A DNA stretch of 64,000 nt from Clostridiales bacterium (GTDB lineage: Bacteria; Bacillota; Clostridia; Christensenellales; JAISNN01): positions 5,863-69,862 of the forward strand of contig JAISNN010000032.1 in the NCBI GenBank assembly GCA_031276195.1. The letters are read 5' to 3'. This document shows, piece after piece, positions 47,604 to 63,516 of this stretch. The notes beneath the pieces were generated by a model. The model saw only the letters and a program-made list of their open reading frames with translations. It was not told the DNA's origin and ran no database searches. The first letter of the stretch is position 1. Each line of letters begins with the position of its first letter. The translations under genes were made by a program, and so were the position numbers.

Positions 47604-47676
47604 TACGCTTTATTGTATTTTTTTAAGATACCTTTATTAAAATAAATAAATTGATAAATGTTTTGCGGCGCTTTGA

Positions 47677-48435
47677 AATTTCGACGTTTTAACGGCGGGG
47701 TTTCCTTGTCAGCCGTTCTCGGTAAGAGGAAAGCAACTCGGATTTAAAGATCCGCGCGGAAACTTATTTTTTGAGATTGCGCGGATAATAGATAAAAAGC
47801 GTCCGCAAGCCGTATTCCTTGAAAACGTCGCAAACCTTATGCGGCACGACGACGGCAAGACTTTTCTCGCGATATACGGCACGCTTGCGCGGTTGGGCTA
47901 TTACGTTACGTATAAAGTCCTCGACGCGCAAGAATACGGGGGCGCGCCGCAAAAGCGCGAGCGGATATTTATCGCCGCGTTTGAGAGTTACGAGGCGTGC
48001 GGGCGGTTTAGGTTTCCGGAACCTATGCCGCGGACGCTGTGTTTGAACGATTGTTTAAAGCGAACGGCAAAGCAAGAGAAGCCGTATTATTATACGTCCG
48101 AAAATTACTTATACGGGCAGTTAGAACGGATCGTTACCGATAGAGAGGCTTTGTATCTTATCACGGACGGCGGCGTTTCGGCAAAGAAATACTATATCGC
48201 TTCCGCTTTGAAGGCTAATATGGGAACTTTTCCGGATAGAATACCCGTTTTGCGCGACGATTACGGAGTAAGGAAACTTACCGAGGACGAATGCCTTGCC
48301 TTGCAAGGATTTCCGAAAGATTTTTCGTTTCCTAACGATATAACGAGAGAGGCGAAATATAAGCAGGCGGGAAATACGGTTTGCGTACCCGTCGTCGAGC
48401 GGATCGCCGAAAAAATAGCGGAGGCGTTGACGTGA
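47677..48435 (+). pseudogene. Second C5-cytosine methyltransferase, 5'-truncated (motifs IV-X)
   Basis: Open frame from 47677 reads NFDVLTAGFPCQPFS...VFLENVANLMRHDDG...PQKRERIF...RKLTEDECLALQGF...KQAGNTVCVPV; no motif I and in-frame TGA immediately upstream; first ATG at 47839. Confidence 0.75.
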
Positions 48436-48842
48436 GCGATATATTCGACAAAGAAAAACGCTCGTACGTAATGAGCAAGGTCAAAAGCAAAAAAAATAAA
48501 TCCACCGAGTTGAGATTAATAAAACTTTTTAAGGCGGCGGGAATAACGGGGTGGCGGCGCGGTTATCCCGTAAGGGGTAAGCCCGATTTTGTTTTCTTAA
48601 AGGAGCGGACGGCGATTTTTGTAGACGGTTGTTTTTGGCACGGACACGATTGCCGAAACGTTACGCCGTCCGATAACGCCGAATTTTGGAATAAAAAGCG
48701 CGCGGATAACCGTCTGCGCGACGAAAAGGTTACTAAACTTTTTGAATCGCGGGGCTGGACGGTTATTCGTATTTGGGAATGCGAACTCAAAAAGGGAAAC
48801 GCGGCGAAAACCTTAAAAAAAATATCGGACGCCGTTACATAG
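48432..48842 (+). CDS. vsr: Very short patch repair endonuclease
   Basis: GTG start overlapping the MTase stop; 'DIFDKEKRSYVMSKVKS', 'GKPDF', 'FVDGCFWHGH', 'IWECEL'. Confidence 0.92.
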   Translation: MSDIFDKEKRSYVMSKVKSKKNKSTELRLIKLFKAAGITGWRRGYPVRGKPDFVFLKERTAIFVDGCFWHGHDCRNVTPSDNAEFWNKKRADNRLRDEKVTKLFESRGWTVIRIWECELKKGNAAKTLKKISDAVT

Positions 48843-48910
48843 CGATTACACTTTAAAATTGCGTAAAATGCGGTTGAAAAACTTGCGCGCCGCGTAGTTT
48901 AAAGTGTAAT

Positions 48911-48935
48911 TATTATATAAAGTAATTTAAGTTTT
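48911..48935. repeat. Left 25-bp direct repeat (putative target-site duplication)
   Basis: TATTATATAAAGTAATTTAAGTTTT, identical to 62305-62329 (identity extends one further T). Confidence 0.9.
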
Positions 48936-49137
48936 TGTAAAATTGTCAATCCCTTTTTAATAATTTTTTAAAAAAATTTAATTTTTACATAAAGAATGGA
49001 GGTGCTCTTAGACTTTTGGAGGTGCGTGAGGAAACTTTTCTTAGAAAAGGTGCCTCACGGAGAGAAAATGTTAAAAAATTTATAGCACAAAAAGCCTATC
49101 AGATAGGATAAGCACAAAAAGAAGATGAAGTGTTAAG

Positions 49138-50118
49138 TTATTCGACTACTCCCCAATCTAATAACAGCAGTTCTTTACGTTTTTCTTTTGGCGTGAGCCA
49201 TTTTCTCAATTTATCACGCGAAGAAAGAACGGAGCTGGGAATATTATTAGAACGTTTCAAATAACTTTTCATTTGTTTAAACAAATCGGCATAAGAATAA
49301 AACTTCAATTTGACATAAAACCGCTCGTTATCGTTACGGTGGGAACGCTCGACCTTTCCGTTATGCCTCGGTGTCCGCGGGCGGATCAATTTATGTTTAA
49401 TCTTAAATTTATCACAAGCGATATCGAAGGCATGCTTTTCTTTTTTCTTCGGAAATAAAGTATATGTAAATTCTTGCCCGTTATCGGTTTGAACGATATC
49501 GGGTACATAACCGAAATAAGCGATTGCGCGTTTTAAAAAATCGACCGAAGAACCAGAATACTGTTCTCGATACGGATATATAAAACGTTCGCGCGTCGCC
49601 TCGTCGATAGCCGTATACTGATAAAACCGCATATCGGAATATTCCCCGGTGTAACATTCACAAGGAACGACCTTTACGTCTATCTGCATTTTAACGCCGA
49701 TTTGTTCGGGAGTATCATAAGGTTTAGGAACATATTTTGGTTTTTTTCGTTTCTTAACGGAATAATATCCGATCCGGCAAAGAAAACGGTAAAGCGTAAC
49801 CGGATCACGAACATATGAATGTTTAGAGCGAAGTTTGCCGTATAACTCGTTTAATCCGATATCCGGATTACGCCGAATCAAATTTGATATATTCTTAATC
49901 TCGTCGGCGGTTTGAGCGCGCGGATGAGGACTAAGCGGACGGGAAGATTTATTAAAAAGTGATTCGATCGTTCCGTCATATTGTCTACGCCAACGATAAA
50001 TAGATTGAACGGTACAATGATACCTCAAAGCGACATCGTCAATCCGTGCGTGTTGGCTCAAATTCAAAATTTTCAATTTTTCTTCCGGCGAAAAAGGTTT
50101 ATTATAATGCCTCGACAT
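49138..50118 (-). CDS. IS481-like DDE transposase/integrase (HTH plus rve core)
   Basis: N-terminal HTH 'VALRYHCTVQSIYRWRRQY'; catalytic 'MQIDVK', 'VQTDNGQEF', 'RPRTPRHNGKVERSHR'. Confidence 0.9.
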   Translation of the reverse strand: MSRHYNKPFSPEEKLKILNLSQHARIDDVALRYHCTVQSIYRWRRQYDGTIESLFNKSSRPLSPHPRAQTADEIKNISNLIRRNPDIGLNELYGKLRSKHSYVRDPVTLYRFLCRIGYYSVKKRKKPKYVPKPYDTPEQIGVKMQIDVKVVPCECYTGEYSDMRFYQYTAIDEATRERFIYPYREQYSGSSVDFLKRAIAYFGYVPDIVQTDNGQEFTYTLFPKKKEKHAFDIACDKFKIKHKLIRPRTPRHNGKVERSHRNDNERFYVKLKFYSYADLFKQMKSYLKRSNNIPSSVLSSRDKLRKWLTPKEKRKELLLLDWGVVE

Positions 50119-50181
50119 AATTTCCTCCTAAAAAAGCGCGATATTTTCATACCGCGCTTTTTTGCATTTTATATTATAATT

Positions 50182-50805
50182 TTATTTTTTTGAATAATTA
50201 AAAATTAATCGCGGCATTTTATCATTCAGCCTCTTAATATCGTCCTCTTCCAAATTAATTAAATTAAAGCCGTTATTCTCATAAAGAGATATTTTATATT
50301 CTTTTCTATTTGCGTAATAATCATTGTTTTTTACGCCCCAAAATTCTATGTATATATCATTATTAGGTAAATAAAAATCTGACAATACATTTTCGTCGGG
50401 ATTTTTAGGAAGAAATACGCTTTTTTCATAAGCGTGAACATAACCGTTATGATAAAGCCAATTATCGATAATAACTTCGGAATATGAACGGACATAATGC
50501 CCGTCGTCGCATTGATGAGCGGCTTCCCATTTTTTGCGCGGATCGTCGTTAGAAAAATCTTCTCGTTTGATAATTACTTGTTTGGTATATTGCTCCGGCT
50601 TATATATCCTTTTCTCCGTTTTTTCAATAATAGTTTTTTCAACTTTTATTTCAGGATTGCATTTATGCCCGTCTTTTGCTTTATACCAAATCTTACAATC
50701 AGGGCATTGCACGACCTCGCCGCTGTCCCGCAATTTAAAGCAATTAACGCAAATAGGATACATTCCGCTTGGATGTCCGCATATTTGACACACTTTTCCC
50801 GCCAT
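50182..50805 (-). CDS. Zinc-finger plus PD-(D/E)XK-like putative nuclease
   Basis: CQIC, CVNC, CPDC; 'DGHYVRSYSEVIIDNWLY...HAYE...SDFYLP...YIEFWG'; RBS AAGGAG before ATG 50805. Confidence 0.7.
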   Translation of the reverse strand: MAGKVCQICGHPSGMYPICVNCFKLRDSGEVVQCPDCKIWYKAKDGHKCNPEIKVEKTIIEKTEKRIYKPEQYTKQVIIKREDFSNDDPRKKWEAAHQCDDGHYVRSYSEVIIDNWLYHNGYVHAYEKSVFLPKNPDENVLSDFYLPNNDIYIEFWGVKNNDYYANRKEYKISLYENNGFNLINLEEDDIKRLNDKMPRLIFNYSKK

Positions 50806-50861
50806 AATTTTACACTCCTTATAAAAGAGCGCGTAAAATACAAAAAGTGCGCTCTCTCGCT

Positions 50862-50998
50862 TTGTTACCACACAAATAAAAAACGCCGCCGCTTTTTACA
50901 TACGAAAAAGACACACCTTCTGCCGAATTAAAAAGGCGGCGCGTATATTTTATTTGTGTGGTAACAATAGTATAACATACGGCGAAATTAAAAGTCAA
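50862..50998 (-). promoter_or_regulatory. Promoter followed by a long inverted-repeat leader
   Basis: Minus strand TTGACT-N18-TATACT; 20-bp perfect IR TTGTTACCACACAAATAAAA (50862-50881 / 50948-50967). Confidence 0.6.
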
Positions 50999-51071
50999 TA
51001 ATATATAATACATTTTGTAATACAAAGTTTTTAAAAAACATTTTAAAAAAACGGCTAAGAGTACTACACGC

Positions 51072-51119
51072 GCCCTTGTATTTTAACAAGCGGCGCGCCG
51101 GCGGCGCGCCGACAAGGGC
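51072..51119. other. Candidate rolling-circle double-strand origin (nested hairpins)
   Basis: GCCCTTGT...ACAAGGGC enclosing CTTGT-ATTTTA-ACAAG and CGGCGCGCCG-G-CGGCGCGCCG, ~180 bp downstream of rep. Confidence 0.5.
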
Positions 51120-51299
51120 AACAACGATTTACACGATACCCGAAACGGACAAGGGACGGTTTTGCCGCTAAACCGCTCAGCAAAAACCGCCCCAAAATAG
51201 ACCGAAATCGGGTCTTAAAAATGACAAATCACACCGTCAAACGACAGTGCTAAAAAAATTGTTATTTTGTTAAAGGAAAAAATGAAAATCAAACTACCG

Positions 51300-52502
51300 T
51301 CAGCAATTGAGTTCGGTCATCGTATCGTATACGGGAATGTCCTCGTCCTCAAAAACATCGTCCCACAAAATAAATTTAACGCAAAAATCAAATATCCGCA
51401 TAGCGATATCGTCGGAACTTAATTCCGTTTCGATCTCGGTAGGCAAAGAAAAAGAATAAAACAACCGCTCGTCGGTCTTGCCCATATATTTCCATATATA
51501 TTCCATAGCGGGACGGTAAGCGGAACGGGAACGACCGTTTATCGGAGCAAAATCGTTCCGTCCGAAAGTATCGTAAAAAAAACTGTTTCGATTCCGCGTT
51601 TCCATACGGCGGCTTTCCGGATTATACTCCCTCGTCTCGCGTATTACGCCTATCATTTGCCCTTCGGGAATAAAAAACAAGCCGTGAAAATGTATGCGGT
51701 CGGTCTTTTTTCCGCGCTCTTTGACGACGGCATATTTCCAACCGCGACGCGTATGTAAATTTGACAGACATTTTTTAAGTTTGCGCTCGAAGTCGTAAAC
51801 GGAACACTTCTTGTCGTCGCAAGTAAAAGTAACGAAATGCGTCCAAGGATTGATATACGCCTTACGACGAAAACGCTTCTTGCGTTCGTATAGATTTTTT
51901 TCCTTGCGCTCGATACGCTCCGCAATATACGTATCGTAAAGAGGATTATCTCCGAAGCGGTCAATCAGAGCGGACTTTATATATTCACATCTTGCCGCGC
52001 CTTTCAACTTTTTATTAAAACATTCCAAGTACAAAGCGTCAAAATGAAAATCAATAACGCCGCGTTGCCGCCAAACTTTACACTCGATACGGTACGCAAT
52101 ATATGCGTCGAGAGTAAAACTATGCTTGCCGAGAACGACAGAGAGATACCACTCGGAATATTTGGAAATCAGACCGCCGCGGATATGAAGAAATTGCGCG
52201 GTTTGAGAAAGACCTTGCTCCATACTCTCCGAATAGAGCAAAGAAAAATACGGATCAAATTCAAGACGGCGTGAAACTTTATTTTTAATCGGCAAAGCGA
52301 TACGATGACGAGCGCCGTCCGCATAGACCTTATATTTTGTCTTGCCGTTATCGCTTTTCTTTTGTTTGCCGGGAAATTCGGATACGGAAAAAACGGGCTT
52401 TTCATTAGTCGCGGTAAGCCCGTATTCAACTTGCTTTTCCAAAGGTAGCGGACAAGACGCGTCCAACGGAATATCCAAAAAATCAAACTGTTTTAAAAAC
52501 AT
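51300..52502 (-). CDS. HUH rolling-circle replication initiator
   Basis: Motif I 'HFVTFT', motif II 'RIHFHGLF', motif III 'EYIWKYMGK'; start chosen at MFLKQF (RBS GAAGGTG). Confidence 0.85.
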   Translation of the reverse strand: MFLKQFDFLDIPLDASCPLPLEKQVEYGLTATNEKPVFSVSEFPGKQKKSDNGKTKYKVYADGARHRIALPIKNKVSRRLEFDPYFSLLYSESMEQGLSQTAQFLHIRGGLISKYSEWYLSVVLGKHSFTLDAYIAYRIECKVWRQRGVIDFHFDALYLECFNKKLKGAARCEYIKSALIDRFGDNPLYDTYIAERIERKEKNLYERKKRFRRKAYINPWTHFVTFTCDDKKCSVYDFERKLKKCLSNLHTRRGWKYAVVKERGKKTDRIHFHGLFFIPEGQMIGVIRETREYNPESRRMETRNRNSFFYDTFGRNDFAPINGRSRSAYRPAMEYIWKYMGKTDERLFYSFSLPTEIETELSSDDIAMRIFDFCVKFILWDDVFEDEDIPVYDTMTELNC

Positions 52503-52804
52503 ACAAACACCTTCGTAACACGTTCGCTTGCGGGTGTAAACGGGCAAGCGGCTGTATTTTTCGCCCGCGAAAAATCTCCGCCGGCAACTTCTTTTCACTC
52601 CGTGAAAAGTATGCCCCGTTGACACGCCGCATTTTTTGCGCTTTTATATCGTCGCCGAAAGCGACAACGGGAAGATAAACTATCAAACAAGCCGCTTTCG
52701 GAACGAATATTGTAGCGCAAAAAAACGCTCTCTCGCCGCGAGGAAATTATCCGGTTTCCTTTTTGCCTCAGCGATCCGAAAAGATAAACGGTAAGCTTAC
52801 CGCT

Positions 52805-53008
52805 TTACATATCACTATCGCCGCTTTTTGTAAACTCAAAGAGTTTATCGGAATTTTGCAACAAAAACTCGAAAAAATCTCCGAAACTGCATTTACCGCT
52901 ATATCCTTGCAAAGCGATAAAAGAACAAAACCGATCGAATTTGTTAGTCAAAAGCGAACGACTAACACGAACCGAAAGCAATTTATCACGGTATAAATCA
53001 AAAAACAT
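52805..53008 (-). CDS. Small hypothetical protein (67 aa)
   Basis: MFFDLYRDKLL...; RBS-like AAGGT upstream; co-oriented with the element's genes. Confidence 0.5.
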   Translation of the reverse strand: MFFDLYRDKLLSVRVSRSLLTNKFDRFCSFIALQGYSGKCSFGDFFEFLLQNSDKLFEFTKSGDSDM

Positions 53009-53047
53009 AACTTTTTTTACCTTTTTTAAAATTTTTCGCAGAAATCG

Positions 53048-53156
53048 TTGACTTTCTACATTTAAAGGCATATAATACTAATACAAAGTAACCGACGGTA
53101 ACGGACGGCTTACAGTTTTGGATCCCGGCTTTCGCAAGATTGCTGGGAGTCTTTTA
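53048..53156 (+). ncRNA. Promoter plus ~75-nt candidate sRNA, convergent with ORF 53154-53510
   Basis: TTGACT-N17-TATAAT (53048-53076); GTAACCG...CGGCTTAC stem; terminator GATCCCGGC...GCTGGGAGTC-TTTT; no ORF inside. Confidence 0.65.
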
Positions 53157-53510
53157 TTTTGACGAAAATTTACCAATAAAAAACTTATGCCTACGTTTTA
53201 TTTTCTTTTTATCTATATCTTTTATATCAATAACTTTAACATTATTTACCGAAAGGCGATTAACCCCCGACCAGCGGGAAAAATTAGCGTCATAAAAAGG
53301 AATAGGATAAACATAACCTTTTCTAATTTTATTAATCCGATTATTGTTAAACCCGTCTTTGTCCTCCAAAGAAGTAACGACGTTAACGTTACATTTATCG
53401 CCGGAAAGTTCGCGGATATAGACATAATGTCCGCCGCTTTTATTGATACCTAAATCCTTGTTATCGCAATAACCGATTTTACCGACGAGAGATTTTTTTA
53501 ATTTGCTCAT
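53154..53510 (-). CDS. Small basic hypothetical protein, possibly a divergent PemK/MazF/ToxN fold
   Basis: 118 aa; 'GGHYVYIRE...VNVVTSLE' spacing resembles the PemK core; RBS AAGGAG. Confidence 0.55.
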   Translation of the reverse strand: MSKLKKSLVGKIGYCDNKDLGINKSGGHYVYIRELSGDKCNVNVVTSLEDKDGFNNNRINKIRKGYVYPIPFYDANFSRWSGVNRLSVNNVKVIDIKDIDKKKIKRRHKFFIGKFSSK

Positions 53511-53515
53511 AATTT

Positions 53516-55666
53516 TTACTCCTTTTCATTGTCGAGATATTTAAATAACTCGTTTACAAAATAACTGTTTTGACCTTTAAGCTCATCGAAACTCGCTTTT
53601 TCGGTTTCGTATTCTTTAACGTCCGCGATACCTACGGCGGAACGAAAAGTTTTTGTAAAAAAATAATCGCTGAAACAATCGGTAGAAAAACGGCGGGAAT
53701 AAATTTTCTTATTCATAAGATAATAAGTATGCTTCTCAACATTACCGTCAAGCGTACCTTGCTCCACTTCAAGAGCGAGTCGACAAAAACCGAAAGTGTT
53801 ATATATACGCTTGTAATAAGTATTTAATTTACCCGCAATACTTTTTAACATATAAATCAAAAGCGAATTATCGCCGCGCAAATAACGCATTTCGCGATAA
53901 AAATTCACGAAACGGGAAAAAATTAAATCATACAATAATTCCTCCACAAAAAACAAAGGCAAAGCGAGAATCTGATCGGAGCCGCCGCGGATATGAACGA
54001 TATTACATAACTCTCTCGCGTCCGCTCCCAAACTTTCGGGACGCTGTTCGTCAAGCAAAACCTTTACGAAAGGAAAAAAATCGACGGTAGAAGAATGTCT
54101 GATCATTTTCAAGAAAAAATTAAAACCGTCGTTCTTTTGGTTCGCGGTAAGATCGGTCTTCTTTAAACCTTGATTCTCGACTTGATTTCCGCGCTCCTTG
54201 CCGGCTTCGGTTATAACCAAAGCCCCGAAATCAAAAGAATCACGGTTAAAATTATCCTCGATAACTCTGCGCCCTAAACGGATAGCGTCAAAATCAAGAA
54301 TATGGGAATGACGGCTATACGCTGCCATAAGACGGGAATCCCGTCGAAAAAAATCATCGTTCCATAACGGGAAATTACCGACGTCGGAAATTACAACGTC
54401 CTCGCGGATTGAATAATTTGAAACTAAAAGCGAACTTTCAATCACATAAATAAAATACAACAAAGCATATGTTTCCAAAACATCCCAAAGTCCGCTTATT
54501 TCAAGCCCGTTGTTATAATACAAACCATACCTCTTAAAGTCATAACCGAAACAATCCTCCGATTTACCGCTTCTTTCAAAAATTTCACGCCGCCGGGAAA
54601 CAAAAGTCCGGCAAGTAGCAAGATTATATACCTCGTGAGCCGCAAAAGCGGAGCGCAAATCTAATTCAAAAATAATCCACGGAAAATAAGGAAATTTAAG
54701 ATCGTTTTCAAGCAGTAAGGAAAAAGCCTTATCGCGAAAAATATATGTCTGTGATAAAGCCATATCGGTCATTAGCGTAGTTTTTTTCTTGCCCATCGTA
54801 CCGACGATCATATTTACAATCGGAAGTGAATTAATAAACCCGCGATCGCGAAGTTCATAACGACGAAGAACGGAATAAGCTATTTTACGGCGGAAATAAT
54901 CGAATAAGAAAACCGCCGATCCGACCCAAAAATACCACGGCACAATGCGTAGCGGAATAGCAAGATCAACTATAAATCTATAAATCTGAGAATAAAAGAT
55001 ACCGAAATCAAAACTAACGACAAAATAAAACAAAAAAGCAAGAATAGATAAAACAACCGTCATCAAATTTAAATTTATAGCCCAAATAAAAAGCCAAAGC
55101 TTAAAATATACCGTGTGGTCACGCAAAAAAGAAAAAAAGCCGGATAAAAAATTGCGAAAGGGAATATATAAAATACGGGATACGCGCTTAACAAATTTAA
55201 GCGGAAAAGTATCTCTGTCATAATTGTTATTTTGCTTTTTAACGGAATTATATATAACAAAAACAAGAAGTATCAACACGGGTAAAAAAAGCGTTACGAC
55301 GGTCAAAACTCTGTATAGCAAAAGCCCGACAAAAGCGGCATAAGCCGAAAAATTTGCTTTGGTAAAAAGTAAAGACCAAAGCGCGGAAAATTTTTCAACA
55401 AAACCCGAATAGTCGGACGGAAAAGAAACGGTGATATCGGACGGCGGCAAAATCGACGGCTGCGCTACCGTGGGAGTTACCTCGAAAGGCAAATAAAACA
55501 GTTCGCAAAAATAATAACCGAGCGAATTCAAAAAATCCTTTAAAGCCAAAAAAGAACGCGACAGCGAATCTTGAAAAAAGAAAATCCCGCACAGCACAAA
55601 AATCACGGTCAAAAAACCGCAAATAAAATGCCGAAACTCAAATAATTTTATTTTTTCAAAACCCAC
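53516..55666 (-). CDS. pI/Zot-like morphogenesis ATPase with N-terminal transmembrane segments
   Basis: About four TM segments, then Walker A 'IVGTMGKKKTT', Walker B-like 'ALVITE', 'KMIRH' and 'LLDEQRPESLGADAREL' (Zot-like Q/R motifs). Confidence 0.7.
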   Translation of the reverse strand: MGFEKIKLFEFRHFICGFLTVIFVLCGIFFFQDSLSRSFLALKDFLNSLGYYFCELFYLPFEVTPTVAQPSILPPSDITVSFPSDYSGFVEKFSALWSLLFTKANFSAYAAFVGLLLYRVLTVVTLFLPVLILLVFVIYNSVKKQNNNYDRDTFPLKFVKRVSRILYIPFRNFLSGFFSFLRDHTVYFKLWLFIWAINLNLMTVVLSILAFLFYFVVSFDFGIFYSQIYRFIVDLAIPLRIVPWYFWVGSAVFLFDYFRRKIAYSVLRRYELRDRGFINSLPIVNMIVGTMGKKKTTLMTDMALSQTYIFRDKAFSLLLENDLKFPYFPWIIFELDLRSAFAAHEVYNLATCRTFVSRRREIFERSGKSEDCFGYDFKRYGLYYNNGLEISGLWDVLETYALLYFIYVIESSLLVSNYSIREDVVISDVGNFPLWNDDFFRRDSRLMAAYSRHSHILDFDAIRLGRRVIEDNFNRDSFDFGALVITEAGKERGNQVENQGLKKTDLTANQKNDGFNFFLKMIRHSSTVDFFPFVKVLLDEQRPESLGADARELCNIVHIRGGSDQILALPLFFVEELLYDLIFSRFVNFYREMRYLRGDNSLLIYMLKSIAGKLNTYYKRIYNTFGFCRLALEVEQGTLDGNVEKHTYYLMNKKIYSRRFSTDCFSDYFFTKTFRSAVGIADVKEYETEKASFDELKGQNSYFVNELFKYLDNEKE

Positions 55667-55687
55667 CGTCGCACTCCTTTTTGCTTC

Positions 55688-55783
55688 TCAAAAAATTTGC
55701 TTATACGTAAAAACAACGTAACCGACGAGTACGCAAAATATGAGAAATATAACGAGAGCAATAATATTCTTTACTTTTTTCAT
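55688..55783 (-). CDS. 31-aa single-TM peptide (candidate small virion protein)
   Basis: Manual translation MKKVKNIIALVIFLIFCVLVGYVVFTYKQIF; below the ORF-track cutoff; directly upstream of the ATPase; weak RBS. Confidence 0.55.
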   Translation of the reverse strand: MKKVKNIIALVIFLIFCVLVGYVVFTYKQIF

Positions 55784-55811
55784 ATTTTTCAATTTTTTTC
55801 ATCAAAAACTA

Positions 55812-55929
55812 TTGACTTTCAAAACTTTATACAGTATAATAAGCAATAGTTAAACGATTCAATCGTTTATTCCCGCCGATATTGGATTGCGGCATTGCCC
55901 CGAACGGATTAGTTTCGGGGATTTTTTTT
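55812..55929 (+). ncRNA. Promoter plus ~80-nt candidate sRNA, convergent with ORF 55909-56352
   Basis: TTGACT-N17-TATAAT (55812-55840); hairpin TAAACGA-TTCAA-TCGTTTA; terminator CCCCGAA...TTCGGGG-A-T8 overlapping the ORF's stop codon. Confidence 0.65.
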
Positions 55930-56352
55930 ACCTCGAAATATATCCATTTTCTTACGGTTTTCAAGTGAAGGAATAGAACTTTTAAAAACTTTATTTCTAA
56001 TCTTCTCTACATCTTGACCCGACACATCCATATTAGGATGATTTTCACGAAATTTCTTATTTACACGTATCGGCGCGCCCTCGTCATCTTGTATCTCTAC
56101 ATAATGCTTAAAATACGATTGACCCTGCTGATAATTTTTTAATCGCGTACGGTTTTTACCGTCGCGCGAAGAAAGCGGAACGACAGCAAGATCGTTTCGT
56201 TCATTTGCCTCAATCACCACAACAGGACGTTCCTTTACAGAACCCGTACACTTTCCGCTAAAATAATTATCATGAGTTATCAATGTTCTGCCTTGCGGTA
56301 CTCTACCGTTTACGGTTCTATTCTTATTTAATCGTTTCCTATTTTTACTCAT
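55909..56352 (-). CDS. PemK/MazF-like protein without adjacent protein antitoxin
   Basis: 'KERPVVVIE....LAVVPLSS' matches the PemK core K-x-RP-hhh ... hhP-h-S/T; RBS AAGGAG. Confidence 0.7.
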   Translation of the reverse strand: MSKNRKRLNKNRTVNGRVPQGRTLITHDNYFSGKCTGSVKERPVVVIEANERNDLAVVPLSSRDGKNRTRLKNYQQGQSYFKHYVEIQDDEGAPIRVNKKFRENHPNMDVSGQDVEKIRNKVFKSSIPSLENRKKMDIFRGKKNPRN

Positions 56353-56391
56353 AATCGTTTACTCCTTATCGTTTTTTAACGGTTTTAATAA

Positions 56392-58446
56392 TTACTTTCT
56401 CTTTTTGTATTTTCCTTTAATCCCATCCAAATAGATTTTATTGACGATCTTATTTTTCCTTCGTCCGGACGGCTTTAACAAACCGAGTCCGCCGAATAAT
56501 ACGGACAAAACGGACGGAACAAGGGTTGCCACGGCATACAAAATAAGTATTAAAAGAATAATACCTAAAACCCACTTTAAAATTTCCAATAATTCTTGCC
56601 ACCAATCACCGACGTCAAAAATACCGGTAGGAGGCGTTAAACCGGGCAACACGTCTATCGGGTCGGAAACGGCGGGTATAACCCGATAAACGCCGTCGCG
56701 CGCAAACGTCAAAGAAATTATATCGAAATTAAAAAAGTCGGTAGTCTGAACCGTATACGCTTGACCGGACCAATGAGAATCTAACGGACGATAAAACTCA
56801 TGCTTATAAATATCGAGCGGGAAACCGTCATAAGACGTTTGAGCAAATCTAAAAAGATAAGTATGCTGTCCCGCCGTATAAGCTTGATTTTGTATCACGG
56901 AATAATCGTCTTCCGAGATAAAAAGATTATCCCAATAATGATCGTTATTAGGAATAAAATTTGTAACATCCTCAATCATCTTAACGTTTGTAAACGTCGT
57001 TCCATAATTTTTACCGTCTTGACCGAAAATAATATTCCAAATATTTTTAATATTTACCGTCCCGCCGACGGAAAGATATGCGTCGTCAACGGTAAAATCA
57101 TATAAATTATAGCCCCTTGTCCTACCGGTATCTACGGCGCTATCCCAATAAACGGATCGGATAAACTGTCCGCCGTCAGAAAAAGCCAAATCATTACCGA
57201 AACGATCTTTTAAATATGTATTATACTCCTCGGTCCGCGCAAAATCGGTCTCTAAAAAATTCTTAATATCCGACGGCTTAACGACTAAATCGGAACTATA
57301 AAAGTACCAATACAATTTATCCAAATACGGACCGCCGTTAACGCCGGGAATACCGATAATGTAAGGATTCCAAGCCCACCACCAAGTGGGAATATTAGTT
57401 CCGTCAAAAAGATAATTATAATATAAACTCCGCGCATCATCGGAAAGATCCTCGGCGGTAGACAATCCCAGACGGCCCGGGATATAATTATTCAGCGCGC
57501 CGCTGGACGAAACCACAATAGGCTTAGTTTTATACTCATACCACTCCGCACGAATCCCGTACAAGTCTCCGTAAGTGTTAATATAATAATCGGGTACGGA
57601 AAAATATACGGAAGTAAGTTGATCCTCGGCATAATCTCCGCGCTCCGGATTATCGGTGCGCCAATATGTATCCTTAACTTCAAGAGATACCGTTTCCATA
57701 TCGGTAACGGAACTTATCAGCGTGCTATCGGCGTATCCGTCGGCTCCATACCCGGACGCAAAGCCCTTAAAAATATAAGAACCGCCTACGGCGTGATCAA
57801 CGGATTTATTTTTATTAACACCGTTTGCCGCGGCATTATCGTAACGAAATTCAATACCGGATATATCATAACGGCGTTCGCAATTATCCAATACCACGCC
57901 GGATAAATTCTGATCGCGAACTGATTCGGTAACTCTTTTTAAAATCGTTTTACCGTTTACGGCAGCATGATCTATAACGCGATATTTATAAAATAAACCG
58001 GCATAATCTCCGGAGGAAACCGAACAAAATTTCAATTGAAATTTTTCATAAGAATCAGGAATGCCGTTGCCGTCGTAAGACGTTGCAATTTCTATTCTGT
58101 CGGTCATAGAAGTTTTATTAAAACTAAAACCTTGCGGATTGTAAATATAAAGATAAAGACAATAATTTATTTGAGCGTTAGCGTAATAACTGTAACAATA
58201 TTCAACAAAACTTAAAACGGATAGTTTATGTTCGCTCCCGTCGGAATCATAAGGATAATCGGATAAATCAAAAGGTTCACCGTTGACCGTAGAAAATATC
58301 AAATCGTCTAAAACGTACGTACCGTCAAAACCATTCTTTTCCGACAAAGCGAAAGAAAACCCGGATATATCTAAAAACGGTATACCCGAACAAAAAATAA
58401 CAAAAAATGCGACGAATAAAAACATAAAAAATTTCTTACGTATCAT
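56392..58446 (-). CDS. Large surface protein with N-terminal signal/TM and C-terminal TM anchor (pIII/spike-like topology)
   Basis: 684 aa; hydrophobic N-terminus, 'WVLGIILLILILYAVATLV' near the C-terminus then a basic tail. Confidence 0.7.
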   Translation of the reverse strand: MIRKKFFMFLFVAFFVIFCSGIPFLDISGFSFALSEKNGFDGTYVLDDLIFSTVNGEPFDLSDYPYDSDGSEHKLSVLSFVEYCYSYYANAQINYCLYLYIYNPQGFSFNKTSMTDRIEIATSYDGNGIPDSYEKFQLKFCSVSSGDYAGLFYKYRVIDHAAVNGKTILKRVTESVRDQNLSGVVLDNCERRYDISGIEFRYDNAAANGVNKNKSVDHAVGGSYIFKGFASGYGADGYADSTLISSVTDMETVSLEVKDTYWRTDNPERGDYAEDQLTSVYFSVPDYYINTYGDLYGIRAEWYEYKTKPIVVSSSGALNNYIPGRLGLSTAEDLSDDARSLYYNYLFDGTNIPTWWWAWNPYIIGIPGVNGGPYLDKLYWYFYSSDLVVKPSDIKNFLETDFARTEEYNTYLKDRFGNDLAFSDGGQFIRSVYWDSAVDTGRTRGYNLYDFTVDDAYLSVGGTVNIKNIWNIIFGQDGKNYGTTFTNVKMIEDVTNFIPNNDHYWDNLFISEDDYSVIQNQAYTAGQHTYLFRFAQTSYDGFPLDIYKHEFYRPLDSHWSGQAYTVQTTDFFNFDIISLTFARDGVYRVIPAVSDPIDVLPGLTPPTGIFDVGDWWQELLEILKWVLGIILLILILYAVATLVPSVLSVLFGGLGLLKPSGRRKNKIVNKIYLDGIKGKYKKRK

Positions 58447-58453
58447 AACAACC

Positions 58454-59041
58454 TCAAAAATTAATTTGATTAATATCCAAAATCACAGATTGAACGGGAA
58501 CAACATTATTAAATTCTATATAAACAACAGACGCTCCGTTATCGGGGATTACTTCAAGCAAAAAGTATAAATGAGCCGCAGTCAAAACGGAAGACATAAC
58601 GACTTCCGAATCGGAATACAAAGATTGCAACACCTCCGACATAGATTTATCAACGGACATAATAAAATAATCACCTTGACCGTCTATATCAAAAGCGACG
58701 GATAAATCTAAAATTTTACTAAACAAATGCGGCGCACCGTCAACATAAAAAACAAAATCATCAGCGGCCGACACATTCGGCAAAACTCTTACGGTGTACC
58801 CGCTCGGCTTCTCAACCGCTAAAAAATCCAAAGTATATCGACAATCAAAACGCACGGAAGCCCTGTCAAACTCAACCTTGTTCCCCGATCCCATATAAAA
58901 AACACCGTCGTAAACAACGTAAAAAGTTTCAAAACCGGTCGTAAAATTACGAGTAAACATAGACAAAAAACCGATTAAAAACATAACCGCTAATGAAAAT
59001 AAAACGCCGAATATTATTTTAGATAAAAACTTCTTACGCAT
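58454..59041 (-). CDS. Hypothetical protein with N-terminal TM anchor
   Basis: 195 aa, 'IIFGVLFSLAVMFLIGFLSMF'; closely coupled to its neighbours. Confidence 0.7.
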   Translation of the reverse strand: MRKKFLSKIIFGVLFSLAVMFLIGFLSMFTRNFTTGFETFYVVYDGVFYMGSGNKVEFDRASVRFDCRYTLDFLAVEKPSGYTVRVLPNVSAADDFVFYVDGAPHLFSKILDLSVAFDIDGQGDYFIMSVDKSMSEVLQSLYSDSEVVMSSVLTAAHLYFLLEVIPDNGASVVYIEFNNVVPVQSVILDINQINF

Positions 59042-59043
59042 AA

Positions 59044-60606
59044 TTAGCTCCCAAATAAAAATGATATATCGTAATATACAATAGAATCATCATCAAAAAT
59101 AACAAAAAGATAGTCACCGACAAGAGACAAATCACGAATAGAATTTTCAAAAGTATGATACACCCAATTAAAACCGTCGGTAGAATACGCCAAAGTAAAA
59201 TTAAAATACGAAAATAAAAAACCGTAATCTTCACAACCACAAAAATCAAAATGAGAATCCTTAGAAAAAGGTTCCTTAAAATAATTAATCCAATTATAAC
59301 CGTCAGAACTATAAATAGAAGTAAAGACAGCCGTATTACTCGAAGCCGATAAAACTACAACTTTTCCGTCTATAAAAAAATAAGAAAAATAAGTAGACGA
59401 AAAACCGACACTAAGAGAAACGGACGTAAAAGTTTCACCGTCGAAACTAACATAAAAACGATCTTTTCCTAAACCAAAAATATAAAATACATCATTATAA
59501 ACATAAAAAGTACGAGCAGAAAAATCTAAAATTTCAGCCCAATTAGTTAAGTCGGAGGAACGGTACACCGAATCAATGCCGCAAAAATAATAGTAACCGT
59601 TAAAATAAAACAAACCTTTGTCATTACCATAACGATCAAAAGAAGAAGACCCCGATATCCAATTCTCACAATCATAACTATATCGATAAGAAAAACGCAA
59701 ATGACGAGAACCATAAACAAAATAAACACCATTAACATAAGAAAAACTAAATCGATTAAAAGAAAAGTTACTATCACCGGAAAAAGCAAAATAAAAATTC
59801 ACACAATCAAAAGTATAATAAAGACTATTATTATATGAAAAGAAAAATCTATCGTTTAAATAATCCATATAAATATAACGATCAATTTCTTGGAACGAAG
59901 TCGAATCGTTTAAATCTGATCCGAAATAATAAGAAGAAGCAGAGGAGCCGGGAGACGAAGGCGCACTAACAATATATAAACCGTTACCATAAACGAGAGG
60001 AACCCGAATAGAATTACTATCGGATAAAGCAAGAGAATAATCGCTCGGATTATCCAAAAAACTTGTATATTTAACGATACACTCGGCATACACTTCCGGA
60101 TTACTGACCGAACTCGCCCGAATGATAATATCCTCGCCAAAAACCTGCAAAAACGACACCTCCGCAGAATTAGACCCGGATTCGGCAACATCAACACTAA
60201 TATAATCAAATACGTCCTTATCAATTATCCACGACGAAATGGGATTAAACCAATAAGTCAACCACTCAATATCAGAATTAGTCGCGTCAAACGGATCAAG
60301 CTCCGCCGTCAATAAAACGACAGAGCCATCGGAAGCAATAGAAGTAGAAGTCATAAAAAAACCATCGGCAACAGATAAAAACGGAAAATTTTCAACCTCT
60401 TCACCGCCGGAATCTGCATTGTCTTCATTATCGCCGATATCAGAAACGGGAATCACCGGATCGATTTTATTTTCATCGTCGACAATTATATTTTGACGAT
60501 CCTCAGGAACATCGTTAAAATATAACGAATAAACTAAAACTCCGATAAGCGCGATTAAAATCACGCTTATAACGACAATCAAAGTAATTTTAATTTTCTT
60601 ATCCAT
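59044..60606 (-). CDS. Membrane-anchored protein with Ig-like domain and Asp-box (BNR) repeats
   Basis: N-terminal TM; 'LTAELDPFDATNSDIEW...IRASS...AECIV' Ig-like region; SYDCENW, SSDLTNW, SFDGETF, SSDGYNW, STDGFNW. Confidence 0.7.
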   Translation of the reverse strand: MDKKIKITLIVVISVILIALIGVLVYSLYFNDVPEDRQNIIVDDENKIDPVIPVSDIGDNEDNADSGGEEVENFPFLSVADGFFMTSTSIASDGSVVLLTAELDPFDATNSDIEWLTYWFNPISSWIIDKDVFDYISVDVAESGSNSAEVSFLQVFGEDIIIRASSVSNPEVYAECIVKYTSFLDNPSDYSLALSDSNSIRVPLVYGNGLYIVSAPSSPGSSASSYYFGSDLNDSTSFQEIDRYIYMDYLNDRFFFSYNNSLYYTFDCVNFYFAFSGDSNFSFNRFSFSYVNGVYFVYGSRHLRFSYRYSYDCENWISGSSSFDRYGNDKGLFYFNGYYYFCGIDSVYRSSDLTNWAEILDFSARTFYVYNDVFYIFGLGKDRFYVSFDGETFTSVSLSVGFSSTYFSYFFIDGKVVVLSASSNTAVFTSIYSSDGYNWINYFKEPFSKDSHFDFCGCEDYGFLFSYFNFTLAYSTDGFNWVYHTFENSIRDLSLVGDYLFVIFDDDSIVYYDISFLFGS

Positions 60607-60653
60607 ACAAAAAAACCTACTTTAAATAAAAATTATCTTTTAAATTTTTTGCC

Positions 60654-61565
60654 CTAATTTACTTTCTTTCCAAGTTCTATAATCGTCGCGACTATAACGG
60701 ACATTTTATTATCAATTTCATGCAAATACTCCATATTCGCAGACAACATATCACTCAGCAATACATGAAAATCCACATAGTTGCTCAAAGAATAACCCAT
60801 AAATCCTTGATAAAATTGATATAAAGCATACGCTTCATTGCGTCTTTCTAACTTTTCGGCAACTTCGGCTTCATAATTAGGATTAGACAAAATACCGGTA
60901 TTGGCTTCATAAACCGAAACGATATAAGAATAATATGTATAAAGCAAATCAACCGCGTAAACATCTTCATACACGGCATCACGAGTAAATATATGATTGC
61001 CGCTACCCAATATCTCCGAACCGTCCGTCGTTTCATAAAGATTTAATCCGGCTTTACAGCGTTGATAAAAAGAAAAATTAATATCATAAGCATTAGACGG
61101 AAAATACCCAGAACCAAAAGCGGATCTATACGTATTTAATTGGCTTGAAGTAATACCTAACACATTATACATATATTCGATACTACTAACGTAAATCATT
61201 GAGGAATATAATGAATCCGCTAAACTATAAGCATCCGAAACTTCACTAAACGAGCGGTCAATTAATATTCTTAATTGTTCATTCTCCGCTTCAACGGCAA
61301 GTTTCATATCTTGATACGCTTCAAGTTCACTTTCAAGTAACGTTATAACCTCCGCGTAAGAAACCTCGCCGTCAACCGGTGAAGATTGATCGGTTTTAAA
61401 CATATCGAAAGCAAAAACCGACAAACCGGACATTAAAACGACTAAAAACATAATCGATATGACGGAAACAAAACTCGGACGGGTTAAAATTTTTAAAACG
61501 GAACCCGAACCGCCGCGCAAACGATTCCTAAGTTTTTGAAACTTACCATTAAATTTTTGCTTCAT
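60654..61565 (-). CDS. Hypothetical protein with N-terminal TM and coiled-coil
   Basis: 303 aa; RBS GAGGTG; 'VISIMFLVVLMSGLSVFAF' then heptad-like stretch. Confidence 0.7.
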   Translation of the reverse strand: MKQKFNGKFQKLRNRLRGGSGSVLKILTRPSFVSVISIMFLVVLMSGLSVFAFDMFKTDQSSPVDGEVSYAEVITLLESELEAYQDMKLAVEAENEQLRILIDRSFSEVSDAYSLADSLYSSMIYVSSIEYMYNVLGITSSQLNTYRSAFGSGYFPSNAYDINFSFYQRCKAGLNLYETTDGSEILGSGNHIFTRDAVYEDVYAVDLLYTYYSYIVSVYEANTGILSNPNYEAEVAEKLERRNEAYALYQFYQGFMGYSLSNYVDFHVLLSDMLSANMEYLHEIDNKMSVIVATIIELGKKVN

Positions 61566-61644
61566 AAAACACCTCTTTTTTGATTTTTACTAAATTAAAA
61601 AAATAGGGGATATTACAAAAAACATAATACCCCCTTTAAACAAA

Positions 61645-62160
61645 TTACATAGAAGACAAAACCATTTCAAGCAAATTTTTATCCGACGTTTCTTTCGGCT
61701 TTATTTGCGCCTTATAAACGCCCGTATCGTCAATATTACGGGCATAATAATACATACCGCGCTTAGTAATCTTGCCGGTACGATTGTCCTTAACGGTATA
61801 AGACTCCAAGATAAGTTCAGCGTTCAAAGCGTCGCCGAAAACAAAATCAAGAACCTCATACCCGCCGATATCAAGAGGAACAAAATCCACACGGGAAGAA
61901 CGACCGCGCAAATTAAACCTCAAAAAATAATTACGGTAATCTTTCTTGTTCGCTCCGCGCACAACTTCACGCTCGATAAACAATCCCGTCGCAATTCCGT
62001 CAACCGTTTCGACGATTCCCTCCGAAAAAACGGCACCCTTTTCCGCGCCGCTCGATTCCGCTTCGCTTGTTTCCGCTGCAACCTTTTTTACTTCCGCTTC
62101 GCTTGCTTCCGTTGCAATTTTTTTCGCTTCCGCTTCCACTTCCGCTACAATTTTAGACAT
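61645..62160 (-). CDS. Soluble hypothetical protein, first gene of the element (possible ssDNA-binding protein)
   Basis: 171 aa; strong RBS AAGGAG; acidic repeat N-terminus, aromatic/basic beta-rich core; SSB role is a guess from position. Confidence 0.65.
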   Translation of the reverse strand: MSKIVAEVEAEAKKIATEASEAEVKKVAAETSEAESSGAEKGAVFSEGIVETVDGIATGLFIEREVVRGANKKDYRNYFLRFNLRGRSSRVDFVPLDIGGYEVLDFVFGDALNAELILESYTVKDNRTGKITKRGMYYYARNIDDTGVYKAQIKPKETSDKNLLEMVLSSM

Positions 62161-62263
62161 AGATTTACTCCTTTCCCCTAAAATCCATTAGAGGCAATGT
62201 TTTTATTCGGCTCACGCCGTATGGTAAAACTCTTATCGCATAGTTTTAATGCGCAAAATAAAA

Positions 62264-62293
62264 AATAGATGTGTTAAAATTAACACATCTATT
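62264..62293. promoter_or_regulatory. Perfect 14-bp inverted repeat at the right end of the element
   Basis: AATAGATGTGTTAA-AA-TTAACACATCTATT. Confidence 0.65.
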
Positions 62294-62304
62294 GTAATAC
62301 AACA

Positions 62305-62329
62305 TATTATATAAAGTAATTTAAGTTTT
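62305..62329. repeat. Right 25-bp direct repeat (putative target-site duplication)
   Basis: Identical to 48911-48935. Confidence 0.9.
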
Positions 62330-62577
62330 TATATTGATTTTTTTTGCGTTATTTGGTATAATGGTATAAATTGATTTTTTAAACGGCGTATTCGTCGTTT
62401 TGATATACGGTATACGGATTAAACGGCGGGATTTCGTATTTTGTGTGATAGTGCGCGGATTAAACGGCGGGATTTCGTATTTTGTGTGATAATATGCGGA
62501 TTAAACGGTTGAATCCGGTATTTTATATAACCGTATATAAACCGACGGTATATAAATTCCGCTTAAATCGGAGAGGT

Positions 62578-63516
62578 ATGATGACGGATTTTTTTAACGG
62601 GCTTGTCAAGGTTTTGTCTTATGTCGGGCCGGGGTATGTTTTCGTTTTGTTTTCTGCGGCGGTTGCCGCGGCTTTTTTGGTTTCGCTTCGTTTTTCGTCG
62701 CGCGGTTTGAAGCGTTACGCGGACGCTATGCTTAGCGCCGCGGACTATCTCTCCGACGAAAGAACGGGTTCGCTCGGAAAGAACAACGCGGGTTATTTTT
62801 TCCGCAAATACGCCTGTGATTTTCCCGTCGCGATGCAAAACCGCGTCGCGGCGTATTTGAATTCTATGGAAGTAAAGCCATCCCGTTTTATCACCGAGGC
62901 GGACTGTTTAAAGCCCGTGTCTTTCGGCGCGGAACGAAAGAAATTTTTGACCGTATACGATATGATCGCGCGGACGGCTTTTGCCGCCGCGTCCGCTTTT
63001 TCGCTGGCATACGGCGGCGCGGAGGCTTTCGGGGCGGCGGCAGTCCTGCCGATGACCGCGGCGGTCGCGCTCAGGTATGTTTTGAAATTCAAAAACGATT
63101 CGCTGGACTCTTATCTGACGGACGCTTTTTATACCCTTATCGACGCTATGGACGCCGCCGTCGTTCTAAAAAACGATCCCGAGGACAAAAGTCAAGACGG
63201 AATTCTCAAAAAAGCGGCGGCTTTAATCAAGGAACTCGTGGACGAGGAGAGGGACGTCCAAAGATATCACTACATAAACGAAACGGACGGACTTTGCCGC
63301 GAGTTGAGAGGGGAACGCCTCAAAGAAATCGCCGACAACGTGGCGGTCGTGTGCGGCGAGGATACGCCGCTCGCGACGTTAAAACAGATTTTTAATATGC
63401 TTTCGGAATCGAAATATTTCTACGCGACCAAGGAGGAAACCGAACTGTTGAACGGCTGCCTTGTGAAACTGAAAAACACGATAATAAGAATCGAAAAGGA
63501 TATTATAAATTTGTAG
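62578..63516 (+). CDS. Hypothetical membrane protein (host-like codon usage resumes)
   Basis: RBS GGAGAGG before ATG-ATG; N-terminal TM plus two central hydrophobic segments. Confidence 0.65.
   Translation: MMTDFFNGLVKVLSYVGPGYVFVLFSAAVAAAFLVSLRFSSRGLKRYADAMLSAADYLSDERTGSLGKNNAGYFFRKYACDFPVAMQNRVAAYLNSMEVKPSRFITEADCLKPVSFGAERKKFLTVYDMIARTAFAAASAFSLAYGGAEAFGAAAVLPMTAAVALRYVLKFKNDSLDSYLTDAFYTLIDAMDAAVVLKNDPEDKSQDGILKKAAALIKELVDEERDVQRYHYINETDGLCRELRGERLKEIADNVAVVCGEDTPLATLKQIFNMLSESKYFYATKEETELLNGCLVKLKNTIIRIEKDIINL

Follow-up and report, generated by a model that had tools for sequence, protein, structure and literature searches.

Introduction

Several bacterial insertion sequences (IS) carry a promoter that is complete only on the circular form of the element. 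For IS2, PMC3299598 describes a minicircle spacer of 1 bp that creates the mandatory 17-bp spacing of the junction promoter, Pjunc, next to a target duplication of 5 bp; according to the same source and to bioRxiv 10.1101/2022.12.17.520857, circle-junction promoters are established in elements of the IS3, IS30, IS21 and IS256 families and suggested for ISKpn21. Here we analyze an element of 13,369 bp (positions 48936-62304) that lies within a 64-kb stretch of DNA, hereafter the window, from a Clostridiales bacterium (assembly GCA_031276195.1, contig JAISNN010000032.1, positions 5,863 to 69,862). It combines a DDE transposase with a phage-like gene set, and each of its two ends holds what appears to be one half of a promoter.

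The closest described transposases belong to IS481 and to the IS1202 family, whose DDE transposases are related to IS481 and whose target duplications fall into classes of 5-6, 15-17 and 24-29 bp (bioRxiv 10.1101/2022.12.17.520857, PMC10132070, PMC10045372). Duplications of 24-29 bp together with TGT..ACA termini are recorded for the IS1202 group, which is nested within IS481 in transposase trees (PMC10045372; bioRxiv 10.1101/2022.12.17.520857). ISKpn21, a member of the IS1202 family, is described as forming circles in which the spacer equals the 5-bp duplication, and a junction promoter was suggested for it (bioRxiv 10.1101/2022.12.17.520857). The family includes ISKpn21, IS1202, ISTde1 and ISAba32/ISAjo2, and some of its members sit next to a site bound by protein (dif/XerC), always at the same distance and in the same orientation; according to PMC10132070, the transposases of the family have 394-507 amino acids (aa), the IS measure 1.3-1.7 kb, and no target is given for the long-duplication groups. 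Among phages, transposases have been listed with the integration genes of inoviruses (Roux et al. 2019, PMC6813254).

Ends of the element and the predicted promoter formed by abutting them

Read on the minus strand, the left tip carries an outward-facing TTGACA (48949->48944) followed by ATTTTACA (48943->48936), and the right tip begins with TGTTGTAT (62304->62297) followed by an inward-facing TACAAT (62296->62291), so that each hexamer stands 8 nucleotides (nt) from its tip. Both the tip sequences and these distances had been given in the original prediction and were confirmed when the two ends were read again. The prediction had further stated that abutment gives TTGACA-N16/N17-TACAAT aimed at the first gene (62160); joining the tips by script with 0 or 1 spacer base indeed produced an 11/12 match to TTGACA-N16-18-TATAAT, and the first open reading frame (ORF) downstream of the right tip on the minus strand is 61645-62160. 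Random abutments of 30-mers taken from the window reached 11/12 in 48 of 200,000 trials (2.4e-4). In the integrated state, a consensus scan found no site of at least 9/12 that uses TACAAT, and none of at least 9/12 on the minus strand between 62300 and 62160, ahead of the first gene. Upstream of the -35 hexamer lies an A/T-rich tract (Table 1), and similar runs of T and A precede this hexamer in most relatives. A perfect direct repeat of 25 nt flanks the two tips, or 26 exact nt with the ambiguous T at 48936/62330 included.

Two other sites involve the sequence of the left end. In the integrated state, TTTACA, which forms the final 6 nt of the left tip, combines with a TATAAT within the target duplication into an 11/12 outward promoter-like site with 18-nt spacing (48912-48941, minus strand), which points antisense into the neighboring vsr-like gene and may be due to chance. 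Elsewhere in the same genome (L002, G000:C47, 1500-1640) there are three tandem copies of a unit of about 40 nt with GGATTGACAATTCCGAATTTG after A/T runs; it is 92% identical to a 36-nt stretch at the left end of the element and may represent a remnant end or else an array of host promoters or operators.

Relatives of the transposase and the target duplication

An alignment of four transposases served as query to scan species-representative genomes and metagenome contigs, yielding at least 524 relatives in the former and at least 471 in the latter, with 80 loci kept from each. Their records place them in gut Clostridia (many of them of Christensenellales type), Bacilli, Erysipelotrichales and Mollicutes-like bacteria. 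Direct repeats were then searched with one copy no more than 450 nt past the transposase gene and its partner at any upstream position, neither hexamer being used. This search returned 32 pairs from 162 sources; L038 (44 nt), L070 (16 nt) and L223 (35 nt) were dropped as repeats unrelated to the tips, L181 as a duplicate record of L180, and 28 were kept as independent insertions. They comprise 18 plain IS (1.11-1.22 kb, with transposases of about 280-330 aa) and 10 larger, phage-type elements (3.6-13.4 kb), the one in the window included.

The duplications measured 25 nt in 12 insertions, 26 nt in another 12, 24 nt in two and 27 nt in one, the remaining one having 25 nt with one mismatch, and the repeated sequence was different in each of the 28. 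For example, L024, from a genome of the same genus and with a transposase 64% identical to that of the window, has the same tips and a perfect 25-nt flanking repeat of unrelated sequence. Because repeats of 24-27 nt with unrelated sequences flank the 28 relatives, the 25-nt repeat of the window is a target duplication and not an attachment (att) core. The parallel that the original prediction had drawn with IS circle-junction promoters is apt, because the DDE transposase that makes this target duplication is IS481-like; IS2 is the closest case.

The transposase of the window matches Pfam rve (E=7e-15), helix-turn-helix (HTH) domains and the transposase group phrog_8463 (E=1.2e-27). Its best named model is NCBIfam IS481 (NF033577; 171.2 bits, E=3e-50), a score under the 224-bit curated cut-off, while the ISNCY_2 model gives 33.7 bits against a cut-off of 250 bits. 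IS481 elements resemble the plain IS relatives in their TGT..ACA termini, their single transposase gene and their size of about 1.1-1.2 kb; they differ in their duplications, for which PMC10045372 gives 2-15 bp, mostly 6, against the 24-27 nt found here. With the IS1202 family our elements share the long 24-29-bp duplication class, but the transposase is shorter (326 aa in the window), the IS are smaller, the ISNCY_2 score is far under its cut-off, the circle spacer is 1 nt against a 25-nt duplication (the two are equal in ISKpn21), and the target appears to be a promoter, as described below.

The IMG/VR database held a single relative (L028/L029/L241, a contig of 20,099 nt) when either the transposase or the 716-aa protein of the element was used as query. 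This copy (L028/L029) has both tips, 12.6 kb apart, without a flanking repeat, and it was excluded from the duplication counts. A record from a phage collection, MT836237.1 (transposase 42% identical), proved to be a plain IS insertion and not a circle. Three elements of intermediate size (L100, L110/L221 and L229; 3.3-7.0 kb) have the same tips and duplications of 25-26 nt; these may be deletion derivatives or mini-elements mobilized in trans.

Conservation of the two hexamers

Positions 9-14 of one tip read TAYAAT in all 28 insertions (TACAAT in 22, TATAAT in six), and the same positions of the other tip read TTGACA in 17, TTTACA in 10 and TTGACT in one; conservation of both half-promoters among homologues, which had been proposed as a check on the prediction, was thus found in 28/28. 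In the phage-type elements TTGACA is present in 10/10 and a perfect TATAAT in 6/10. The hexamers vary at position 3 of each, and a single -35 differs at position 6, while the -10 has an invariant T, A and final T, in a set whose compared transposases are only 54-68% identical. Together the hexamers make up both halves of the sigma-70 consensus.

The plain IS allow the two ends to be compared with each other. Across the 18 of them, the two ends agree at positions 1-3 and share 94% identity over the inner terminal repeat (positions 15-26), whereas hexamer positions 10, 11 and 14 match between ends in none (0/18). Since the inner repeat matches and the hexamers are unlike, each end appears to keep its own hexamer under selection. 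The terminus at the right tip is TGT in 27/28 insertions and TGA in one (L065); at the transposase end it is TGT in 18/18 plain IS but in only 4/10 phage-type elements, five of which have TGC or TGA, and L024 ends in TGA, not ACA. Of 160 loci, 139 show a motif resembling the tip behind the transposase gene.

Circular relatives and their junctions

Among 124 unique loci with at least 30 nt of sequence past the transposase-end tip, 122 run into an unrelated flank and two run into the other tip. The first of these two is L172, a metagenome contig of 14,576 nt with an exact terminal overlap (55 nt) of the sort that usually marks a circular assembly; its transposase and 716-aa homologue are 62% and 51% identical to those of the window, and its junction, in the middle of the contig, reads TTGACA, 8 nt, C, 8 nt beginning with TGT, and TACACT, followed by a hairpin and a T-run. 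The second is G042:C16 (the same as L055), with 12,020 nt and a 47-nt terminal overlap that has one mismatch; its junction reads TTGACA, 8 nt, T, 8 nt and TAACAT, and a second contig of the same bin carries the same tip beside a host flank. Both junctions have a 1-nt spacer and a 17-nt promoter spacing, and neither holds the 25-nt repeat. For the circle the original prediction had expected a spacer of 0-2 nt and a promoter spacing of 16-18 nt, values within which both relatives fall, and it had named a junction retaining the whole 25-bp repeat as the result that would speak against it.

These junctions resemble Pjunc of IS2, and also those of IS911, IS3 and IS150 and the junction promoters of IS30, IS21 and IS256, in that an outward -35 and an inward -10 stand in opposite terminal repeats and come together as a promoter sequence only on the circle; as in IS2, the spacer of the circular relatives is shorter than the duplication and the termini end in CA-3'. 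Several features set the element of the window apart. The gene set behind the junction is an 11-gene, 13-kb operon of a rolling-circle, phage-like kind in which the transposase gene is the last and not the first; the duplication has 25-26 nt as against 3-5; a terminator-like hairpin overlaps the -10; and the circle is probably a replicating genome, where theirs is a transient intermediate.

Other candidate junctions were rejected. The sequence downstream of L070 is a host repeat present at 13 places in that genome. A scan of IMG/VR with a specific junction pattern gave four matches, with the hexamers spaced 23 nt apart in three and 34 nt in one and with no related sequence, and a degenerate pattern gave 36 matches, none with a homologue of the element's proteins and all ordinary promoters.

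A hairpin behind the -10

The hairpin that overlaps the -10 hexamer (Table 1) folds at -14.7 kcal/mol (z -3.8) in the RNA that would be read in from outside, and at -1.0 kcal/mol in an RNA starting at 62284, the start expected about 7 nt after the -10. Equivalent hairpins with other sequences, and with a T-rich run in most, are found in L024, L029, L046, L053 and L172 (z -4.0 to -5.1); the structure, and not the sequence, is conserved in 6/7 elements folded at the tip (z -3.8 to -5.1). In L055 a hairpin with a T-run lies about 70 nt further in, as judged by eye only, and an eighth fold input, L065:700-800, lies outside the tip of that element and is uninformative. The hairpin would stop read-in from the host but let through transcripts from the junction promoter, in which its 5' arm would be missing. 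This 5' arm is similar to the inner part of the terminal repeat found in the plain IS. The hairpin might also act at the DNA level, for example in transposase binding or as an origin.

Insertion upstream of host promoters

When the host DNA beside the -10-bearing tip was aligned for the 28 insertions, a common order was seen: the duplicated segment (18% G+C), 4-5 nt, a TTGACA-like hexamer, 16-18 nt and a TATAAT-like hexamer. Matches of at least 10/12 occur in this flank in 16/28 insertions, of at least 11/12 in 9/28 and of 12/12 in 3/28. As controls, a match of at least 10/12 was found in the other flank in 0/28, in random windows from the same loci in 59 of 20,000 (0.3%), and in AT-matched random windows in 22 of 5,000. 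On these alignments the family, plain IS and phage-type elements alike, inserts 4-5 nt upstream of a predicted host -35 in one orientation and leaves the predicted promoter intact. The duplicated AT-rich segment of 24-27 nt corresponds in position to the region where UP elements lie. Such a pattern suggests that the transposition complex reads promoter architecture, either directly or through bound RNA polymerase. In the window, the predicted host promoter at 62334-62362 precedes the gene 62482-63516.

The leader between this host promoter and the gene contains three tandem 41-nt repeats (62415-62537; 100%, 93% and 66% identity to the reference copy), and a stretch of 31 nt at 47674-47704 is related to them.

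Proposed mechanism and alternative explanations

We consider it probable that the circular form of the element carries a functional promoter and that integration splits it. In the circular double-stranded form the tips would lie end to end around roughly one spacer base; the A/T-rich tract and TTGACA would come from the left tip and TACAAT from the right, giving a near-consensus sigma-70/sigma-A promoter with 17-nt spacing that would drive the 11-gene operon, through the replication gene, to the transposase as the last gene. The transposase would cleave at the two 3' CA ends that flank the spacer base and join them to the target with a stagger of 25-26 nt, a chemistry inferred from the enzyme family. 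Integration would then cut inside the promoter spacer, so that one end would keep an outward -35 and the opposite end an orphan -10, with the entrance of the prophage guarded by the hairpin and T-run against read-in from the host. A return to the circle, whether through copy-out of the IS2/IS911 kind or through another excision, would restore the promoter and with it expression. Circularization is therefore proposed as the likely on/off switch for the element's genes; promoter activity, silencing on integration, bypass of the terminator and the copy-out route are all inferred from the arrangement of the sequence.

A number of observations weigh against this reading. The junction evidence comes from contigs of two relatives and none from the element of the window, which is present in its own genome as a single integrated copy; the circularity of G042:C16 depends on an overlap in which one base is mismatched, and a tandem dimer would give the same picture; moreover, the circles may represent phage genomes in replication, not the products of recent excision. 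The 1-nt spacer is unlike the simple geometric prediction, because in ISKpn21 the circle spacer equals the duplication length. Promoter-like matches are generally common in this AT-rich DNA (52 in the region, against 41 +/- 8 in shuffled sequences), and weaker internal sites on the minus strand, for example those at 50998-50969 (10/12) and 50194-50166 (9/12), precede the last two genes, those of the 229-aa protein and the transposase. Lastly, the hexamers may be recognition elements for transposition, because the host target sites carry the same hexamer architecture.

From this last point comes the strongest of the alternatives, which we nevertheless regard as unlikely: the hexamers would be primarily end-specific transposase sites that make the two ends functionally different, their likeness to a promoter being secondary or incidental. 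It would fit the position of the hexamers within the terminal inverted repeats, the presence of TTGACA-N17-TATAAT at a fixed distance and orientation at the insertion sites (16/28 at or above 10/12, 0.3% by chance) and the need of IS2 for unlike ends in its donor and recipient roles, as described in PMC3299598. However, transposase binding alone predicts neither a -35 match at one end with a -10 match at the other, nor the exact 17-nt spacing of the natural circles, nor variation confined to the positions that sigma-70 tolerates best, with TATAAT in 6/10 phage-type elements. As both roles coexist in IS2 and IS911, this alternative mostly reduces to a dual function; the host promoter resembles the element's own junction, and a dual function of the hexamers, as in IS2/IS911, would be the most economical reading.

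Somewhat less likely still is a junction promoter that is real but no switch, namely one that serves constitutively as the main promoter of an episome in chronic replication, whose integrated copy is a dead end or is expressed from inside. The circular relatives do assemble as stand-alone contigs, the two internal promoter-like sites given above could serve such expression, and a prophage must make transposase if the element is ever to leave. Against it, the integrated state offers no site of 9/12 or better ahead of the first gene, a conserved terminator-like hairpin guards the entrance, and the copy in the window is intact with a perfect duplication; furthermore, integration is common, because 122 of 124 relatives were found integrated.

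It is very improbable that the 25-nt repeat is a site-specific recombination core kept in the circle, which would place the hexamers 41 nt apart and leave no promoter: direct repeats of such length are typical of prophage att sites, but no tyrosine or serine recombinase was recognized among the 11 ORFs of at least 118 aa in the element, the repeat differs in 28 insertions, and the two circles carry 1 nt between the tips. A chance occurrence of two good hexamers near the ends of an AT-rich element, which the lack of enrichment of promoter-like matches in the region (52 against 41 +/- 8) would allow, has a practically negligible probability given the frequency of random abutments (2.4e-4) and the conservation of the hexamers in 28/28 at identical distances.

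Returning to the split promoter, the wider proposal joins two statements: that this is a widely distributed yet nearly unnoticed family of rolling-circle, phage-like elements in gut Firmicutes and Mollicutes-like bacteria with a repressor-free lysogeny switch, in which the sole operon promoter exists only in the circle, and that promoter architecture is its insertion address, host promoters being used as "pseudo-junctions". The two together are advanced only tentatively, as a possible reading.

Genes of the element and what kind of element it is

All long ORFs between the tips are on the minus strand; 11 of them have at least 118 aa, the first being 61645-62160 and the last 49138-50118. The features are collected in Table 1.

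Table 1. Features of the element and of its immediate flanks, in window coordinates.
Feature	Position	Strand	Basis
Left copy of the 25-nt target-site duplication	48911..48935		repeat search and relatives
Left tip (transposase end): terminal 8 nt and outward -35-like TTGACA	48936..48950	-	sequence reading
A/T-rich tract immediately preceding the -35; possible UP element	48951..48990	-	sequence
Terminator-like hairpin after the transposase gene, marking the operon end	49094..49113	-	terminator scan
DDE transposase, 326 aa; N-terminal HTH and rve core, IS481-like; last operon gene	49138..50118	-	Pfam, PHROG, NCBIfam
229-aa protein; Cys-rich N-terminus, weak resolvase/nuclease-like C-terminus	50182..50871	-	weak Pfam/PHROG matches only
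106-nt near-perfect hairpin between the Rep and 229-aa genes; candidate single-strand origin or packaging signal	50862..50967	-	repeat search, DNA fold
Rolling-circle replication initiator (Rep), 441 aa	51300..52625	-	Pfam PF23343 REP_ORF2-G2P, E=4.6e-10, above its cut-off
716-aa protein; P-loop GTMGKKKT; hallmark gene of the phage-type relatives	53516..55666	-	homologues; no family match
Six further ORFs of 147, 684, 195, 520, 303 and 171 aa; the 171-aa gene (61645-62160) is first after the promoter half	55909..62160	-	ORF list
Terminator-like hairpin, 13 pairs, then T-run; starts inside the -10 hexamer (last bases of TACAAT)	62264..62293	-	terminator scan, RNA fold
Right tip (operon-start end): terminal 8 nt and inward -10-like TACAAT	62291..62304	-	sequence reading
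Right copy of the 25-nt target-site duplication	62305..62329		repeat search and relatives
Predicted host promoter TTGATT-17-TATAAT, TG-extended, directed away from the element, 4 nt past the duplication; apparent target signal	62334..62362	+	promoter scan

The family of the Rep protein, PF23343, is a rolling-circle initiator of small single-stranded-DNA phages, and weak tblastn matches to microvirus replication proteins were also obtained. The 106-nt hairpin beside its gene has perfect outer arms of 20 nt and a DNA fold of -32.4 kcal/mol (z -7.2), and single-stranded replicons employ structures of this type as origins or in packaging; it explains the matches to plant microRNAs that Rfam returned at 50862-50967, which are spurious, and Rfam gave no real family over 48700-62700.

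The 716-aa protein has homologues of 35-52% identity that adjoin Rep and the transposase in many loci. It probably spans the membrane, as read from its sequence, and residues 11-280 are helical in the AlphaFold model (mean predicted local distance difference test score, pLDDT, of 69). No family was found for it in Pfam (E up to 10, Zot included), NCBIfam or PHROGs; a Foldseek search of the model against the PDB returned generic P-loop folds only, all with E>0.5, the Zot N-terminal domain ranking 32nd (E=1.9), and the Zot leads of a protein atlas, with scores of 0.85-0.86, are a weak lead only. Likewise, the six further ORFs matched no family in Pfam, PHROG or NCBIfam; several look secreted or membrane-bound by sequence and have partial homologues in relatives. 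Neither a tyrosine or serine recombinase nor a repressor-like protein was recognized among the 11 ORFs of at least 118 aa, and no coat, morphogenesis or other inovirus hallmark protein was recognized in this same set.

The element thus looks like a phage-like rolling-circle element with a transposase. It may be viral, given the Rep of family PF23343, the circular relatives of 12-14.5 kb and the one IMG/VR contig. Similar in kind are Spiroplasma plectrovirus SpV1-C74 and the transposase-bearing inoviruses, which are small rolling-circle single-stranded-DNA phages that integrate by a DDE transposase and not a recombinase, as proposed here; ORF3 of Spiroplasma phage C74 (U28974.1 / NC_003793.1), a "putative transposase" and distant relative, aligns with residues 138-286 at 30% identity, over 46% of the length of the window's transposase. 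In contrast to inoviruses, pI/Zot, coat and other hallmark proteins were not recognized among the 11 ORFs of at least 118 aa.

A strong terminator-like hairpin (13 pairs and a T-run; 61605-61635, minus strand) stands between the 171-aa and 303-aa genes, and could be an attenuator that sets the level of the first product against the rest.

Relation to described systems and implications

A promoter that acts only after excision is also known from conjugative transposons of the Tn916 type, in which circularization places a promoter before genes across the joint. There the whole promoter reads across the joint and the enzyme is a tyrosine recombinase, whereas here the promoter itself would be split and the enzyme is a DDE transposase. 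In the literature consulted, no junction promoter or promoter targeting was found reported for IS481, no split promoters were found described at the ends of SpV1-C74 or of transposase-bearing inoviruses, and neither a split or junction promoter in any transposase-bearing phage nor promoter-targeted insertion by IS481- or IS1202-type elements was found; ISfinder and the supplementary tables of the IS1202 papers may already list the clade. Four features were accordingly not found described: a junction promoter controlling a whole phage-like operon, a duplication of 25-26 nt with a 1-nt spacer, a hairpin overlapping the -10, and promoter-targeted insertion.

If the junction promoter works as read, the state of integration alone would set the expression of a whole phage-like genome, unlike lysogeny based on a repressor, and an insertion-sequence device, Pjunc, would have been recruited to control a replicon of viral size. 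A 25-26-nt duplication alongside a circle spacer of 1 nt separates two quantities that simple transpososome models equate. For a bacterial transposon, landing just ahead of host promoters at a set distance and in one orientation would be an uncommon way of finding a safe haven, in which host genes stay intact and keep their promoters, and it might serve as a promoter-seeking integration tool. Because at least 524 and at least 471 relatives were found in genomes and metagenomes, yet a single contig in IMG/VR, this common class of gut mobile element seems to be largely missed by virus-detection pipelines.

Host flanks of the insertion

An empty site was looked for in genomes of the same genus: the left flank matches two of them within the vsr-like gene only (73-74%), and the right-flank gene is not adjacent there, so that these genomes offer no empty site for this insertion. 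The vsr-like gene (48381-48842), beside the left duplication, would encode a Vsr-like very-short-patch repair endonuclease, as judged from its sequence without a family search. Its homologues in same-genus genomes share 64-72% identity and lie in a different neighborhood.

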